Assembly: GCA_013695385.1 (NCBI GenBank)
Contig: JACDAN010000030.1
Coordinates: forward strand, 1 to 41,202
Source of the DNA: Actinomycetota bacterium
GTDB lineage: Bacteria > Actinomycetota > Thermoleophilia > Gaiellales > Gaiellaceae
Reading direction: 5' to 3'
DNA length: 41,202 nucleotides
This document shows, piece by piece, positions 21,538-26,196 of this stretch (positions are counted from its first letter, which is position 1; each line of letters opens with the position of its first letter). The notes under the pieces were generated by a model. It made no database searches. It had not been told where the DNA came from and saw nothing but the letters and a program-made list of their open reading frames with translations. The position numbers were made by a program, and so were the translations under genes.

Positions 21538-21610
21538 GGGCCGTTAGCTCAGTTGGTAGAGCAGGGGACTCTTAATCCCAAGGTCGAAGGTTCGAATCCT
21601 TCACGGCCCA
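21538..21610 (+). tRNA. tRNA-Lys (anticodon CTT)
   Basis: Manual cloverleaf: acceptor GGGCCGT/ACGGCCC, D arm GCTC-AGTTGGTA-GAGC, anticodon stem-loop GGGGA-CTCTTAA-TCCCA, T arm GAAGG-TTCGAAT-CCTTC, discriminator A. CCA is not encoded. Confidence 0.9.
21568..21610 (+). repeat. att-like core, proximal copy (3' 43 nt of tRNA-Lys)
   Basis: 42/43 identical to 25162-25204 in the same orientation. Confidence 0.8.
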
Positions 21611-21672
21611 TAGGCGAATGCCCTGGAAACTTGGCTTTGTACGCCACAGCACGCCTGATGGCCCGCGGCACG

Positions 21673-21691
21673 GGTCAACGCAGGGTCAACA
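21673..21691 (+). repeat. 19-nt double-heptamer motif, copy 1 (GGTCAACGCAGGGTCAACA)
   Basis: Read directly, 63 nt after the tRNA 3' end. See copies at 24175 and 25046. Confidence 0.7.
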
Positions 21692-21723
21692 TCCCGTCCG
21701 TGCCGACCGTACCGAATCTGGAA

Positions 21724-21756
21724 TCCGGGCCGGAGGCGCCGTATCGCGCCCCCGGA
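21724..21756 (-). terminator. Imperfect GC hairpin downstream of the CLCA-like gene
   Basis: TCCGGG (21724-29) pairs with CCCGGA (21751-56), and the inner GGCGC (21735-39) pairs with GCGCC (21746-50). It lies 15 nt after the stop at 21771. Confidence 0.35.
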
Positions 21757-21770
21757 CACACGAGTTCGAG

Positions 21771-23999
21771 TCACCACTTCGCCTTGTGGGCCTTCTTCCA
21801 GCGGTCGACGAGTGCCTTCTGATTCTTGGGCACCGAGGGCGGGATCGGGTTGTAGCCCGTGATCGGCTCCTTGCCGGTCGGCCCCTCGCGGTCGACGGTC
21901 GCTGCGAGGAGCGCGCGCCGGCGGACCGCCGGGACCTTAACCTCCCGCTTCAAGTCCTCCGGCTTCAGGCCGGGGCGCTGGCGGTAGAGCTCGTCCAACT
22001 CGAGCACGAACTTGCCCGCGGCCTTCCGTGCGTCCACGACGATCAAGTACTGGCCGGGCATCTCGCCCTTCGTCTGGATGGTGGCCGTATACGTGAACGG
22101 CTCGTTCGGGTCGCCCTTGGCGCCGGTGTGCTCGGTGAACTTGAGCTTGACCCACTTGCCCGAGGGCGTCAGCGCCCATCCGGTCATCTGCGCGCCGGGG
22201 ACGGCGAACGGAGCCCGGAGCCGCGCCCTGACCTCGAGCTCGTTGCCGAGGCGGACGTGGGCATGGACGAGCGAGACGTCGAGCGAGATGTCGTCGTTGA
22301 CCTCGAACCCGACGGTGCGGAAGCGTGTCCCGCCGATCCCGGCGCCGGTGACGCGGACGGTCCACTTACCCCGCTTCGGGTTGTCGATCTCCCAGAAGCC
22401 GTACGGGTACTTGCCCGAGACGCGACGACGGCCGGCACCTGCGGTGATCAGGTTTCCGTCAGGGTCGATCACCCGCACGGTGAACTGTCGCTTCGGCTCG
22501 CTCCAGAGCGCGCCGAGCGTCGCGTGCGTGCTGCCCGCCGTGATCGGCACGGTGAACTCGAAGGAGCGGCGCGTTCCGGCCGACGCGCGTCTCTTGATCT
22601 CGCCGAAGTGCCAGTCGAACGGCGCTGCCTTGTCGGCGGCGGCGCCGTCGGGGCTGGCGCCGTCGATCGGGTTGAAGGAGACGATGCCGCCGTTCTCGCG
22701 GCTCTCGCCGGCGATCTGGACGAGCGCCTCCGTGATCGCCGTCGCCGCCTCGGCCGCCGACAGATCGCCGTCGATCGGGAAGTACGTACCACCGGTCGTA
22801 GTCGCGATGTTCGTGAGGAGGACCGCGTCCTGGTCGTTGCCGAGCCCGATCGTGTACACGCGCACGCCGTTCGCGCGCAGATCCGGGAGAACATCCTCGG
22901 CCGTCTCGGACCCGGCGTTCTGGAGGCCATCGGTGAACAGGATCATCACCTGGCTCGAGGCGCGGCCGCCCGAGACAATGTTGTTCAGGCCGGCGCGCAG
23001 CGCGTCGCCGATCGCGGTCTGCCCGCCGGCGGTGATCCCGTCGACGGCCGTGTGTCGCGTGTTCCGCCAGGTCGTCTGCGCGGCCGCGCCGGACGGCACC
23101 GCCGACTTCCCGAAGGCGAGCGACGCCGACCCCGCGTAGGTCACGAGCCCGAGCTCCTCGGCGGCGTTCACGTAGTCGACCCAGAAGTTCGCGCCGACCT
23201 TGAGCTGGTCGATCTTCGCACCGAGCATGCTGCCCGAGCGGTCGAGGACGAGCATGAAGCGCTGCACGGGAATCAACTGCGTGCAGACAACGGCCGAGGC
23301 CGCTGCAGGCGCGGCCTGCGTCGGCCCACCGGCGCCCGGTGCGGCCAGGCCGTACGGGATCCCGTTGTGGTTGGCGTCGTTCGCCATGTAGGTCCAGCAG
23401 GACTGATTGCCGTTGATGTTGTTCTGGTTGTTGTCGGCGGTCGCGTTGTGGTTGCCGGCGTGGCAGAACTCGGACGGCTGCCCGTTCTGCAGGGTCGCGG
23501 TGCCGCCGGTGAAGGCCGGGAAGAACGTGTCCCAGTCCGGGAAGTCGGCGCCCGCACCGTCGGTCCAACGCGTGTAGCCAGTCCAGGCGTAGCCCTCCAT
23601 GATCGACGCCTGCGTGGCGATGTTCCCGAGGCACGTCGAGCCGTTGTTGTATTCGTCACGGAGGTCGTAGAGGTAGTGGGACAGCTCGTGCGCGAGGATC
23701 GTCGGGTAGAACATGTGGTCCTGCGGCACGTCGAGCGACTCGAACGGGAACCACAGCCGCGCCCCCGTTGAGTTGGACCAGACGTCCGAGTCGAGATGGA
23801 CCCAGATATCGGCGTCCTTGCCGCCCATGCTGTTCGGCGAGATCAGCATCTGCCCGATCGACAGGGCGCCGTCGGTCGAGTCGTGGATGATTCGCGAGAC
23901 CCGCTCGAGCAGCTGGCACCAGAACCCCATCTCACCGGCGGCTGGCGTGAAGCGCAGTGAGACGACCAGGTTGAACTGCGAGCCTGACAGAAAACCCAT
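21771..23999 (-). CDS. CLCA-like zinc metalloprotease - Cys-rich - VWA - beta-sandwich multidomain protein, no signal peptide
   Basis: Trimmed to the ATG at 23999, with GGAGG 5 nt upstream. HELSHYLYDLRDEY has the same spacing as the CLCA catalytic motif HExxH-x6-DEY. The VWA MIDAS is LVLDRSGSM ... ILFTDG. About 300 aa of beta-rich sequence follow at the C-terminus. Confidence 0.85.
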   Translation of the reverse strand: MGFLSGSQFNLVVSLRFTPAAGEMGFWCQLLERVSRIIHDSTDGALSIGQMLISPNSMGGKDADIWVHLDSDVWSNSTGARLWFPFESLDVPQDHMFYPTILAHELSHYLYDLRDEYNNGSTCLGNIATQASIMEGYAWTGYTRWTDGAGADFPDWDTFFPAFTGGTATLQNGQPSEFCHAGNHNATADNNQNNINGNQSCWTYMANDANHNGIPYGLAAPGAGGPTQAAPAAASAVVCTQLIPVQRFMLVLDRSGSMLGAKIDQLKVGANFWVDYVNAAEELGLVTYAGSASLAFGKSAVPSGAAAQTTWRNTRHTAVDGITAGGQTAIGDALRAGLNNIVSGGRASSQVMILFTDGLQNAGSETAEDVLPDLRANGVRVYTIGLGNDQDAVLLTNIATTTGGTYFPIDGDLSAAEAATAITEALVQIAGESRENGGIVSFNPIDGASPDGAAADKAAPFDWHFGEIKRRASAGTRRSFEFTVPITAGSTHATLGALWSEPKRQFTVRVIDPDGNLITAGAGRRRVSGKYPYGFWEIDNPKRGKWTVRVTGAGIGGTRFRTVGFEVNDDISLDVSLVHAHVRLGNELEVRARLRAPFAVPGAQMTGWALTPSGKWVKLKFTEHTGAKGDPNEPFTYTATIQTKGEMPGQYLIVVDARKAAGKFVLELDELYRQRPGLKPEDLKREVKVPAVRRRALLAATVDREGPTGKEPITGYNPIPPSVPKNQKALVDRWKKAHKAKW

Positions 24000-24174
24000 A
24001 GCCCCTCCAGACGTGTCGAGGCCGCAGCAGGATGCTCTCAGGTGAGTGGCGATCATACCCCCACGCGCGCCGGCGTTTCAAGCGACCGAGCGGCGTCGGT
24101 GATACCGGCTCGGATCTTAATCCCTGCACATCCGGGGAGAGCCTGCATACCGGCGATCAGACGCGCCAGGGTGG

Positions 24175-24193
24175 GGTCAACGCAAGATCAACA
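24175..24193 (+). repeat. 19-nt double-heptamer motif, copy 2 (GGTCAACGCAAGATCAACA)
   Basis: Read directly, 51 nt after the internal TCTTAATCCC fragment. Confidence 0.7.
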
Positions 24194-24356
24194 ACCGCTG
24201 GCGCTCGCACCCCCTTTGTAAAGGCGAACCTTCGAGACCGAACTGTTTACGTGGCGCTGCGGGGCGGTTGCTGGGCGCCTCCTGCGGCCCAATCCGTCCG
24301 GCCACAGGGTCGGCCGTCGACAAATCTCCTGTTGCCGGCATGCCTGATATCGGTAG

Positions 24357-24960
24357 ATGAGCGCGGAGAAACGTCGCGTCCTTGGTCTGACGATCGTGGC
24401 CGGCACGGTCTATGCCGCCGTCGTCGAGTACCCGGAGACGCCTGTTTTCAGCGATCCGTTCGAGCGACTCGACGTGGCGCAGGGTCTCGACCCGTCAGCT
24501 CAGCTAGCAGACTTCTCGGCCCGCTTCAAGCAGGAGCTGCGACGAATCAGGCCGGCCGCGGTTGGGGTGCTTAATAGCGCGGCCGCGACGAGCTACGCGA
24601 TCAGTTCGAGAAGGACGCGCAGGCCGCGAACGCGCCTCGTTTCCCGACGCTGATCGAGATGGCTCGGGCAGTCGACTCACCATTCGCGTACTCATTCGTC
24701 TACCGCGTCCTTTCTCAGAGCGGGGCACATCCGTCTCCGCACGGACTGGACTCACTGATCGAGAATCGGCCGGAGAGCGACGGAGTCTTTATCCATGGAA
24801 GGCCGAAAGAAGGGCCGACGATCGAGCCCTACTACCTGGCTGGCGCGCTGTTGTTCATCTCGCTTCGCGAAACAAGCACGCTCGTCCCGTCCTTGCCGCT
24901 GACCGCGGAACTCGACGCTTCGAGCCGGAGTTCCTCGCGCTTCGCAACGCCCTTGGTGCG
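24357..24960 (+). pseudogene. Possible frameshifted gene remnant inside the islet
   Basis: The frame opened by the ATG at 24357 looks coding (GC3-rich) to about 24570. After a TAG at 24575 the coding-like signal continues in another frame, from 24578 to about 24960, with no canonical start before 24659. Confidence 0.3.
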
Positions 24961-25045
24961 GGCTAACGGGGAGGAGGAGCTCAGCCAATCCGTGCGCTGT
25001 GGCGCCGGCAGAACCCACCACTCGCCTCGGTTGACACTCCTGCTC

Positions 25046-25064
25046 GGTCAACGCAAGGTCAACA
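25046..25064 (+). repeat. 19-nt double-heptamer motif, copy 3 (GGTCAACGCAAGGTCAACA)
   Basis: Read directly. It ends 98 nt before the distal att-like copy, and an inverted GTTGAC lies at 25031-25036. Confidence 0.7.
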
Positions 25065-25161
25065 AGCGACCACGAGAACGCCCGAGGCGCCTCGAACTGG
25101 ACTGGCTCAAACGATGCGGCTTTGGGAGGGCCGCCGAACTGCCGCCAGCCCGACAGCAACC

Positions 25162-25204
25162 ACTCTTAATCCTAAGGTCGAAGGTTCGAATCCTTCACGG
25201 CCCA
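25162..25204 (+). repeat. att-like core, distal copy (partial tRNA-Lys 3' half)
   Basis: ACTCTTAATCCTAAGGTCGAAGGTTCGAATCCTTCACGGCCCA has one mismatch (T at 25173 versus C at 21579). There is no 5' half, so it is not a functional tRNA. Confidence 0.8.
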
Positions 25205-25263: not shown

Positions 25264-26196
25264 GTGAAAGCTCTGCGGCTGTTCCCGCTGGTCGCGCTCG
25301 TCCTCTTCCTCCCGGCCGCCGCATACTCGCCCGCAGGAGAGGCCCGGGTGGGCGCCGACTGCTCCGTCCGCTCGATCGGGCTCAGCGCACTCACCGATCT
25401 CGGAAAGAGGCGCTACCGCGGTCAGGTGGGCGGCCTCTATCCCAGCGGAGCGAACAAACCGCCGCGGCGGCACCTGCAGCGGGGCCTCGCCGCCGCGCGG
25501 CGGGTTCAGCCGATTCGAGGTCGTATCGGCTTCGTCGGACTCGGGATGTCGAACGCCATGCAGGAGTTCGCCGGCTTCACCCGTCTCGCCGGCCAAGACT
25601 CGTCGCTCAATCGGCGCCTGACGTTGGTCGAAGGCGCCGGCGGCGGCTGGGACGCAGTGCGAATGTCTCGGCCGGCGGCGAGGTTCTGGCCCGACCTCGA
25701 CGGTCGGCTCAGGCGCGCCGGGCTCAGCCGCGGGCAGGTTCAGGTCGTCTGGATCAAGCAGGCGATCGCGGGGGAGGATCGCCCGTTCCCCCAGGACGCC
25801 CGCGCACTGCAGACGCATCTTCGAACGCTCGTCCGCACGCTGGGCGAACGCTTTCCGAGGCTTCAGCTCGTCTACGTCTCGAGCCGGACTTTCGGCGGCT
25901 ACGCGATCACCCATCTGAACCCGGAGCCTTTCGCTTACGAAAGCGGCTTCGCAGCCAAATGGCTCGTCCAGGACAGCATCGCGGGCAAGGTGGGGCGCAT
26001 CTGGGTCGGCTGGGGTCCGTACCTCTGGACGGACGGTCTGGCCGGGAGACGCGACGGCCTGACATGGACGTGCGACGACGTCCAGCAAGATGGAACGTAT
26101 CCCTCGCCGGAGGGCGTCCGCAAGGTTGCACGGCTGCTCCACGACTTCTTCAAGGCTGATCCGACCACCAAGCTCTGGTACGCGCCCGCCGGCTGA
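25264..26196 (+). CDS. Secreted hypothetical protein
   Basis: GTG start and signal peptide MKALRLFPLVALVLFLPAAAYS. The GLGMSNAMQEF motif is faintly reminiscent of esterase GxSN blocks. I do not recognise a family. Confidence 0.6.
   Translation: MKALRLFPLVALVLFLPAAAYSPAGEARVGADCSVRSIGLSALTDLGKRRYRGQVGGLYPSGANKPPRRHLQRGLAAARRVQPIRGRIGFVGLGMSNAMQEFAGFTRLAGQDSSLNRRLTLVEGAGGGWDAVRMSRPAARFWPDLDGRLRRAGLSRGQVQVVWIKQAIAGEDRPFPQDARALQTHLRTLVRTLGERFPRLQLVYVSSRTFGGYAITHLNPEPFAYESGFAAKWLVQDSIAGKVGRIWVGWGPYLWTDGLAGRRDGLTWTCDDVQQDGTYPSPEGVRKVARLLHDFFKADPTTKLWYAPAG

Follow-up and report, generated by a model that had tools for sequence, protein, structure and literature searches.

A leaderless CLCA-like metzincin-VWA protein encoded on a tRNA-Lys islet of an Actinomycetota genome

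Proteins of the CLCA family are of medical interest as regulators of mucus and ion channels, and in animals (CLCA1-4, CLCAsins, MEROPS M87) they carry a metallohydrolase (MH) domain, a VWA domain with a metal ion-dependent adhesion site (MIDAS), and beta-rich domains. The gene described here encodes a bacterial protein with the same order of domains. It is located on the minus strand at positions 21771-23999 of contig JACDAN010000030.1 (assembly GCA_013695385.1) of an Actinomycetota bacterium (Gaiellaceae), of which the stretch from position 1 to 41,202 was analysed in full and is referred to as the window. The protein is almost certainly a CLCA homologue, it is encoded without a signal peptide, and its gene is the sole intact one on a small islet next to a tRNA-Lys gene.

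For CLCA1, a cryo-electron microscopy (cryo-EM) preprint (10.1101/2025.10.18.683246) assigned the catalytic zinc to H156, H160, and D167 with Y169 in the vicinity, a second zinc to C187, C250, and H255, and the Met-turn to M238. An inhibitory loop of a beta-sandwich is cut and remains in the active site as the segment A695-L-Y-I-P. The same preprint placed CLCA1 among the metzincins, with the same structural neighbours as were obtained here for the N-domain of the bacterial protein, and described the C-x-M form of the Met-turn for igalysins and archaemetzincins.

In a small number of prokaryotes, Lenart et al. 2013 (PMC3650047) found CLCA_N proteins with a conserved multi-domain make-up, a patchy distribution, and no conserved neighbourhood, and argued from the scarcity of prokaryotic members for a horizontal transfer from animals to bacteria. 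The proteins of that set are likewise bacterial and combine CLCA_N and VWA with further domains; they derive from a few strains of Proteobacteria, Chloroflexi, Synergistetes, and Thermococcus and pass the Pfam profile PF08434, while the term "signal peptide" is never used in the text. In contrast, the clade described here is mostly under the Pfam threshold, uniformly leaderless, and found in Actinomycetota, Bacteroidota, and Verrucomicrobiota, and the family around it is far larger, with 498 representative clusters at E≤1e-10. Literature searches returned no description of a leaderless clade. The leaderless variant, which lacks a domain like fibronectin type III (FnIII) and is igalysin-like, is new, and CLCA homologues from prokaryotes have been on record since 2013.

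Domain make-up and homology to animal CLCA

The open reading frame (ORF) codes for 742 amino acids (aa), which were divided as follows.

21771..23999, minus strand: gene for the CLCA-like metzincin-VWA protein, leaderless (start MGFLSGSQFNL), 742-aa ORF
23280..23999, minus strand: MH domain, aa 1-240 (hhalign, Foldseek, invariant residues)
22695..23267, minus strand: VWA domain, aa ~245-435, with full MIDAS (Pfam VWA 8.3e-16; Foldseek VWA matches)
21891..22682, minus strand: two beta-sandwich domains, aa ~440-703 (AlphaFold2 secondary structure; weak PPC, MG2, and Big_7 Pfam matches in relatives)
21771..21890, minus strand: C-terminal tail, aa 704-742, and stop codon (alignment with a conserved EPIxGxN and a basic RWKKxH helix; model helix 727-737)

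The zinc motif HELSHYLYDLRDEY occupies aa 104-117, with HELSH at 104-108 and DEY at 115-117. The original prediction had read an HExxH-x6-DEY signature with CLCA spacing from this segment, and this was confirmed, as none of its H, E, H, D, and E varies in an alignment of 84 family sequences. When residues are mapped onto CLCA1 following the preprint (10.1101/2025.10.18.683246), H104, E105, H108, and D115 (with Y117) would form the catalytic zinc site. A putative second zinc site, the counterpart of that with C187, C250, H255, and the DEY Glu in CLCA1, consists of E116, C123, C179, and H184, all of which are invariant, and the alignment further holds C201, D253, and S255 without exception. The Cys- and Asn-rich segment that had also been predicted is present as EFCHAGNHNATADNNQNNINGNQSCW at aa 177-202, running from EFCHAGNH (177-184) to SCW (200-202), and the whole protein contains 5 Cys. 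The MIDAS of the VWA domain was found intact, as had been claimed, with D253-x-S255-x-S257 (DRSGS, 253-257), T328, and D357. A Met-turn candidate, A131-S-I-M134-E, lies 17 residues past DEY; it takes the form A-[S/C]-x-M134-E in the family, and its Met is kept in 83/84 sequences. In the last beta-sandwich, the loop D669-E-L-Y-x-x-[RK]-P-G677 is conserved.

AlphaFold2, run with the alignment of 84 family sequences, returned a model with a predicted local distance difference test (pLDDT) of 92.1 and a predicted template modelling score (pTM) of 0.93. The model consists of an alpha/beta N-domain, a Rossmann-like VWA domain, beta-sandwiches at ~479-567 and 572-703, and a short tail that finishes with a helix, so that the C-terminal part, which had been described as beta-rich, resolves into two predicted beta-sandwich domains, at the place taken in CLCA1 by the BSR (jelly-roll) and inhibitory domains. 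Residues 1-10 were modelled at pLDDT 95, and the C-terminal tail was packed on the body with high confidence. The N-domain modelled separately reached pLDDT 79, and its top Foldseek matches were ADAMTS4, matrix metalloproteinases (MMPs), and astacin (best E 1e-3, TM score ~0.4), while the whole chain matched only VWA proteins in the PDB. One relative of 892 aa (P0037; L098 1520-4204) carries ~150 aa added C-terminally past the basic tail, which shows a C-terminus that would tolerate extra domains.

Metazoan CLCA N-terminal sequences were assembled from pig, koala, birds, reptiles, fish, Ciona, centipede, snails, and shrimp, with a human CLCA1 sequence serving only as bait for fetching them. 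Alignment of the bacterial N-domain with this metazoan CLCA_N set by hhalign gave a probability of 97.4% and an E value of 8.9e-12 over 179 columns, and it paired HExxH..DEY as well as the block EFC..NHN..QN..C..W. BLASTP against a koala CLCA1-like protein (E 2e-15) was colinear from HExxH to the VWA domain. With the bacterial N-domain hidden Markov model, vertebrate CLCAs reached 35-46 bits, which corresponds to E values of 5e-7 to 1e-3 at a scale of 1.8e9 sequences. TIGR00868 (hCaCC) matched the last part of the CLCA N-domain together with the VWA at E 2.3e-14, and the family profile matched the CLCA1 VWA structure 6PYO with 3.2e-12. The PDB sequence and fold searches contained no full-length CLCA chain, only this VWA domain of CLCA1. 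These profile comparisons show that both the protease domain and the VWA domain are homologous to those of animal CLCA, and the homology that had been proposed at the outset was borne out by profile search and structure prediction alike, with an N-domain model that matches metzincin folds.

Beyond the domain order and the HExxH-x6-DEY spacing, the bacterial protein and animal CLCA have in common the motif EFC-x4-NH-x-N..QN..C..W, which holds the second-zinc ligands C250 and H255 of CLCA1, and the first Cys past DEY (C187 in CLCA1). Neither has an N-terminal prodomain. The bacterial L-Y..P loop in the last beta-sandwich appears to resemble the autoinhibitory and cleavage segment of CLCA1. In contrast to animal CLCA, the bacterial protein lacks the signal peptide, the FnIII-like domain, the C-terminal fragment, and the disulfide-rich "thumb" insert, its 5 Cys being the only ones. 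Its Met-turn candidate lies near the active-site helix, its mature N-terminus is a conserved Gly, and it is laterally mobile. No fn3 Pfam match was obtained and the protein ends 40 residues past the second beta-sandwich. The full animal architecture is not reproduced, because the FnIII-like domain is missing and the Met-turn is igalysin-like. The claim of a "complete CLCA architecture" was given up on these grounds and because Pfam PF08434 (CLCA_N) stays below threshold, scoring 13.1 bits where 25.6 are required and aligning to no more than aa 195-229 of the 761-aa form that an upstream ATG would yield. Among the relatives, PF08434 reached E<0.01 for 12/31, with 1.7e-5 as the best value.

The M64 igalysins (e.g. 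PDB 3P1V) are like the bacterial family in the DEY past HExxH and in a Met-turn shortly downstream, and their C-x-M form of it is common to 14/84 family members. By sequence, a further likeness may lie in their second structural zinc, bound via the DEY Glu and cysteines, and in the lack of a prodomain. They differ in being secreted and in lacking both the VWA/beta-domain module and the EFC..NHN motif. Pfam M64 (PF09471) scored 12.6 bits against a cut-off of 26 and reached E<0.01 in 8/31 relatives. The best whole-chain Foldseek matches (E 5e-12 to 4e-11) were cytoplasmic VWA and beta-sandwich proteins, namely the Catenulispora VWA protein 4FX5, archaeal ArnB (8S05), and the Sec23/24 trunk. In these intracellular proteins a VWA domain is followed by a beta-sandwich as in the bacterial protein, but they have no protease domain, and the likeness is limited to the VWA and the adjoining sandwich. 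The family is a CLCA homologue with traits intermediate between CLCA and M64, not with the full animal architecture.

Native start and the leaderless clade

Two expression signals precede the gene, both kept in a 93%-identical copy on another contig (L153, described below).

24004..24008, minus strand: Shine-Dalgarno sequence GGAGG, 4 nt 5' of ATG 23999, kept in L153
24052..24081, minus strand: promoter-like site TTGAAA-18-TATGAT, 10/12 matches, both hexamers kept in L153

The strong GGAGG ahead of the ATG had been pointed out in the original prediction and is present as stated there, while TTGAAA-18-TATGAT is the sole promoter-like site between 21500 and 24450. On the minus strand the ORF also extends to 21771..24056, where ATG 24056 would give 761 aa, and the reading frame closes shortly 5' of this codon at ~24077. 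ATG 24056 was rejected as a start: it sits within the -10 hexamer of the promoter-like site, the same ATG is followed by an in-frame TGA in L153, ~90 full-length homologues have MG[FY] at residue 1, and the 19 added residues MIATHLRASCCGLDTSGGA are not signal-like. The start was placed at ATG 23999 because of the GGAGG spacing, the MG starts of the homologues, the -10 overlap, and the TGA in L153. An identical 742-aa gene call is present in the NCBI record GCA_020063825.1. The third-position GC content (GC3) of the gene is 0.92, like neighbouring genes and within the host range of 0.78-0.93, and the window has a GC content of ~67%.

In total, ~95 homologues were found, for which "VWA domain-containing protein" is the sole source annotation. 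MG stands at residue 1 in ~90 of them, which come from Actinomycetota, Bacteroidota, Verrucomicrobiota, and Gammaproteobacteria. Carriers available in culture include Microbacterium lacus, Spirosoma spitsbergense, and Nocardia bovistercoris. A hydropathy scan found no signal-peptide h-region or transmembrane helix in any family member, with maxima over the family of 1.74 (12-residue window, first 60 aa) and 1.75 (19-residue window, anywhere). The absence of a leader, already noted from the sequence of this one protein, is found family-wide, and a check for a mis-called start, which had been named as what could overturn it, left the leaderless finding in place.

The N-domain profile was also searched against 1.84 billion representative proteins in a library without taxonomy, where it matched 2080 at E≤1e-3, 498 at E≤1e-10, and 63 at E≤1e-30. 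Class counts refer to the 116 top representative clusters, each of at least 400 aa. The leaderless class, whose proteins start with MG among the domain's first residues, made up 52/116 clusters (median 690 aa), and a classical signal peptide was found in 40/116 (median 958 aa). The remaining 24/116 fell into neither class, several of them with obviously mis-called starts. The leaderless state had been called unusual, while it proved to be the rule in a large clade, and prokaryotic CLCA homologues had already been described (PMC3650047). In the survey of homologues that had been proposed, signal peptides occur in related clusters and are absent from the leaderless clade, and conserved neighbours were not found.

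Signal-bearing proteins show the junction AxA|G-[SNTD]-G-[TRK]-F, e.g. AYA|GSGTF and AHA|GNGTF, and leaderless ones start with M-G-x-G-x-[FLY]. By established rules, the same N-terminal Gly would result in both classes, from the signal-peptidase cut in one and from removal of Met in the other, and this common mature residue strongly argues that the leaderless start is native. The homologue alignments show the leaderless Met-Gly to be the native start of a large clade, and the pattern suggests that a free N-terminus right at the first beta-strand is constrained. The leaderless and the signal-bearing class cannot be told apart by their numbers of cysteines, which are therefore uninformative on localisation. 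Several longer relatives of 1100-1500 aa (P0208, P0220, P0252, and P0255) carry LEDR[VL]xPG directly before G-x-G-x-F instead of an AxA site, which may act as another kind of signal for sorting or processing.

Lateral mobility, the tRNA-Lys islet, and gene neighbourhoods

A pattern scan of genome contigs returned mostly generic VWA matches and four true family loci. By identity, the relatives include a Gammaproteobacteria-labelled metagenome-assembled genome (MAG) at 76%, a Verrucomicrobiae MAG at 63%, and Bacteroidota at 52%, with the usual caveats of MAG binning. The closest copy defines the following unit.

21771..24102, no strand assigned: laterally shared promoter and gene unit (blastn, 93.2% nt identity to L153:6841-9176)

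L153 is a 342-kb contig of a related organism, whose COX1/COX2 regions are 70-77% nt-identical to and syntenic with the window at 15.4-19.0 kb. The match comprises exactly the promoter and the gene and ends at the stop codon. In L153, the copy lies in the opposite orientation among other neighbours, and no tRNA is present. Between window and L153, synonymous divergence (dS) was ~0.2 for the CLCA-like gene compared with 0.57-0.74 for COX1 and COX2, and aa identity was 95-96% compared with 77 and 54% for COX1 and COX2, respectively. The far lower divergence of the gene than of COX points to a recent lateral exchange of a minimal self-expressed unit. The boundaries of the match show promoter and ORF as an autonomous unit, recently moved between related genomes. 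The ratio of nonsynonymous to synonymous divergence (dN/dS) was 0.11-0.14 in four comparisons, which points to purifying selection on the CLCA-like protein. The copy at L153 6841-9176 is called as ORFs of 338 and 391 aa, as its frame is broken between aa 222 and 352; this could be an indel error of the assembly or a real pseudogene.

In the window, the gene lies in an islet of 3.6 kb (21611-25204) with these features.

21538..21610, plus strand: tRNA-Lys(CTT) (ARAGORN; Rfam 73.9 bits), whose 3' 43 nt (21568-21610) are the left repeat
25162..25204, plus strand: right repeat, a 42/43 copy of the tRNA-Lys 3' end (repeat search)
21673..21690, plus strand: copy 1 of the 18-nt motif GGTCAACGCARGRTCAAC, 63 nt inside the left repeat
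24175..24192, plus strand: copy 2 of GGTCAACGCARGRTCAAC; copies 1 and 2 bracket the CLCA-like gene
25046..25063, plus strand: copy 3 of GGTCAACGCARGRTCAAC, 98 nt inside the right repeat
24357..24577, plus strand: pseudogene, 5' 73 codons of a 165-aa gene, ending TAA TAG (homologues P0112 and P0113)
24578..24966, plus strand: pseudogene, 3' half (~aa 128-256) of a DUF5677 gene, 86% identity to the 256-aa P0107 (PF18928)

The location on a tRNA islet was upheld, as the 43-nt repeat of the tRNA-Lys 3' end (42/43) bounds the region. The CLCA-like gene had been taken for the sole islet cargo, which needs correction, since the two pseudogene fragments also lie inside and the gene is only the sole intact one. 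The DUF5677 pseudogene, with a weak DUF5677 Pfam match and a frameshift near its end, is fused directly to the fragment of the 165-aa gene. This fusion explains the lower-GC, seemingly non-coding 1.2 kb 5' of the CLCA-like gene, a gap in which Rfam detected tRNA only. No ORF or Pfam match for an integrase or recombinase was found in 21611-25204. In composition the islet is not host-deviant, and only 24001-25000 is slightly low (GC 0.641). The islet is a decayed element with a deletion scar, in which the CLCA-like gene is the sole intact gene.

The motif GGTCAACGCARGRTCAAC consists of two direct GGTCAAC-like half-sites and occurs in 3 copies in the window, compared with 0 expected. In two unrelated metagenome contigs (L095 2069-2086, L096 142-159) it was found ~65 nt past tRNA-Lys(CTT), the spacing that copy 1 has in the window. 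It was rejected as a part of the CLCA-like gene, as it occurs only at tRNA-Lys loci and at no other locus of the family. Since it is confined to the tRNA-Lys loci of the window, L095, and L096, it belongs to the tRNA-Lys element and not to the gene. Its role may be that of an arm-type site for a recombinase or of a target for cassettes, and copies 1 and 2 may reflect insertion of a cassette or arm-type sites of tandem elements. In the same two contigs (L095 1934-3723, L096 7-1808), tRNA-Lys(CTT) is followed by an intact 165-aa gene without a Pfam match, which overlaps a Ser/Thr kinase gene of 357-361 aa; the two genes are a conserved module at tRNA-Lys(CTT). The segment 24103-24131 (GGCTCGGATCTTAATCCCTGCACA), which bears a loose likeness to the tRNA-Lys T-arm and acceptor end and includes the 10-mer of the anticodon loop (TCTTAATCCC), may be an internal att copy, now decayed, from between two tandem elements. 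Just past the right repeat, at 25264-26196, lies an ORF of 310 aa that encodes a clear signal peptide (MKALRLFPLVALVLFLPAAAYS) and has no match in Pfam; a gene of the UDP-GlcNAc 2-epimerase type comes next.

Neighbour clustering covered 27 loci, which formed 19 groups below 90% identity. No neighbour was conserved over these groups, and only ubiquitous ABC ATPases and methyltransferases recurred. At two loci (L005 and L006), a tRNA-Pro/integrase island with RloB and AAA_21, HTH, and T5orf172 genes lies beside the gene, at one locus (L001) HNH and RlaP genes and tRNAs adjoin it, and at another (L004) a PIN gene lies upstream. The remaining loci include ordinary metabolic neighbourhoods. In the island at L005 1-7033 and L006 757-6239, a P0045 homologue lies at the edge, accompanied by AAA_21 and RloB as an OLD/PARIS-like pair, HTH_31, T5orf172, and DUF5984. 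A 265-aa metzincin-like gene with weak Peptidase_M10/Astacin Pfam matches adjoins the CLCA-like gene at two unrelated loci, L005 10391-11188 and L009 7081-7878. These genes were rejected as partners, as the copies in L005 and L009 are barely alike (E 0.011).

Searches of defence and virus collections were largely negative. PADLOC-DB 2.0 returned 0 defence families at E≤1, PHROGs returned a weak VWA match only, and BFVD returned only weak viral MMP-like matches. No relatives of the N-domain were found in viral contigs or by tblastn against phages and plasmids.

Proposed function, alternatives, and significance

The most economical interpretation that we infer is a self-contained, probably cytoplasmic, latent metzincin gated by its VWA/beta-sandwich module. 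In full, the protein would be a soluble zinc endopeptidase of the CLCA/igalysin branch without an export signal, cytoplasmic, latent, and VWA-gated, to which a probability of roughly 0.6 was given. Its cytoplasmic location is judged probable, and the mechanism of latency and VWA-gating, which is drawn by analogy, is tentative. The protein would be made without an export signal and stay in the cytoplasm. By analogy to the cryo-EM structure of CLCA1, the enzyme would be made latent, with a loop of its own last beta-sandwich filling the active-site cleft. The candidate blocking loop is D669-E-L-Y-x-x-R-P-G, which resembles A695-L-Y-I-P of CLCA1. The inhibition would be lifted once a protein ligand binds at the VWA MIDAS, and the freed protease would cut that ligand or itself.

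Several points weigh against this interpretation. hhalign does not pair the two ASIM motifs and the CLCA1 Met-turn lies 69 residues past DEY, so that the C-terminal subdomain of the MH domain is not built like that of CLCA1. The Gly position of HExxHxxxG is Asp112 here, while it is Gly in many relatives. Sister clades are secreted with similar cysteine counts, which leaves room for an unconventional export route. To our knowledge, none of the members has been assigned a ligand, a substrate, or a phenotype.

Such a route forms the first alternative, an extracellular protease exported without Sec or Tat, by a C-terminal signal like that of type I secretion systems, by vesicles, or by lysis, and remodelling matrix, surface, or glycoproteins like its signal-bearing relatives. 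The signal peptides in 40/116 related clusters with the same mature N-terminus speak for it, as do the secretion of the characterised relatives CLCA and M64 (PMC3650047) and, at the Microbacterium lacus locus, an ABC ATPase and an ABC-2 permease directly upstream; however, no transporter is conserved beside the gene in the 19 groups, and the leaderless form occurs in monoderm and diderm phyla, which have no common non-classical route. The conserved basic C-terminal tail could serve as a signal, but it was modelled as packed on the body and not as a free signal, and Pfam detected no RTX or type IX secretion-type C-terminal domain. Taken with both sides, non-classical export is considered unlikely.

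Somewhat less likely again is a single-gene conflict or defence module, in which the VWA and beta-domains would sense a phage or foreign protein and the protease would destroy it or a host target in an abortive-infection-like manner. Cytoplasmic vWA proteins are reportedly known in predicted conflict systems. The variable mobile settings of the gene (the tRNA-Lys islet, the L005/L006 island, L001, and L004), its recent lateral transfer, and its patchy spread across phyla are compatible with such a role. However, defence-like neighbours occur in a minority of loci and most are ordinary metabolic neighbourhoods, there were 0 PADLOC matches, and neither MoxR nor another partner is conserved. Copies in the phage, plasmid, and viral collections, which could have indicated an arms race, were not found, and selection is steadily purifying without a sign of diversification. 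The conflict or defence role suggested in the original prediction is left without direct support, being possible but unsupported.

A reading of the gene as a decaying passenger, left without function in a degraded islet, is very improbable. While the rest of the islet is pseudogenised and the frame of the L153 copy is broken, the 742-codon ORF is intact with promoter and Shine-Dalgarno sequence, its functional residues are invariant at a dN/dS of 0.11-0.14, and the L153 contig, to judge by its name, may be a long-read assembly, in which indel errors would be common. An ordinary secreted protein whose mis-called start hides a signal peptide can be dismissed almost entirely, as the longer ORF from ATG 24056 exists but is refuted by its non-signal-like extension, the -10 overlap, the TGA in L153, the ~90 MG starts, and the closed frame.

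It is possible, though doubtful, that the leaderless proteins are cytoplasmic ligand-gated metzincins of a large bacterial CLCA/igalysin-like radiation that was the source of animal CLCA. The 498 clusters score above any vertebrate CLCA tested, which weakens the rarity argument for a transfer from animals to bacteria. If the radiation were the source, the published direction of transfer would be reversed, and the correspondence between the Met-Gly start and the signal-peptidase Gly would mark repeated switching of one enzyme between a secreted and an intracellular form.

The protease mechanism of CLCA was structurally resolved only in a 2025 preprint (10.1101/2025.10.18.683246). The compact bacterial version, with 742 aa, 5 Cys, no glycans, no signal peptide, and a pLDDT of 92, would suit work on an active site of the CLCA type, on the second zinc site, and on the proposed VWA-gated latency of CLCA1. 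As an intracellular metzincin-VWA fusion that moves between genomes as a single self-expressed gene, it would be a candidate for a regulated-proteolysis or conflict function.

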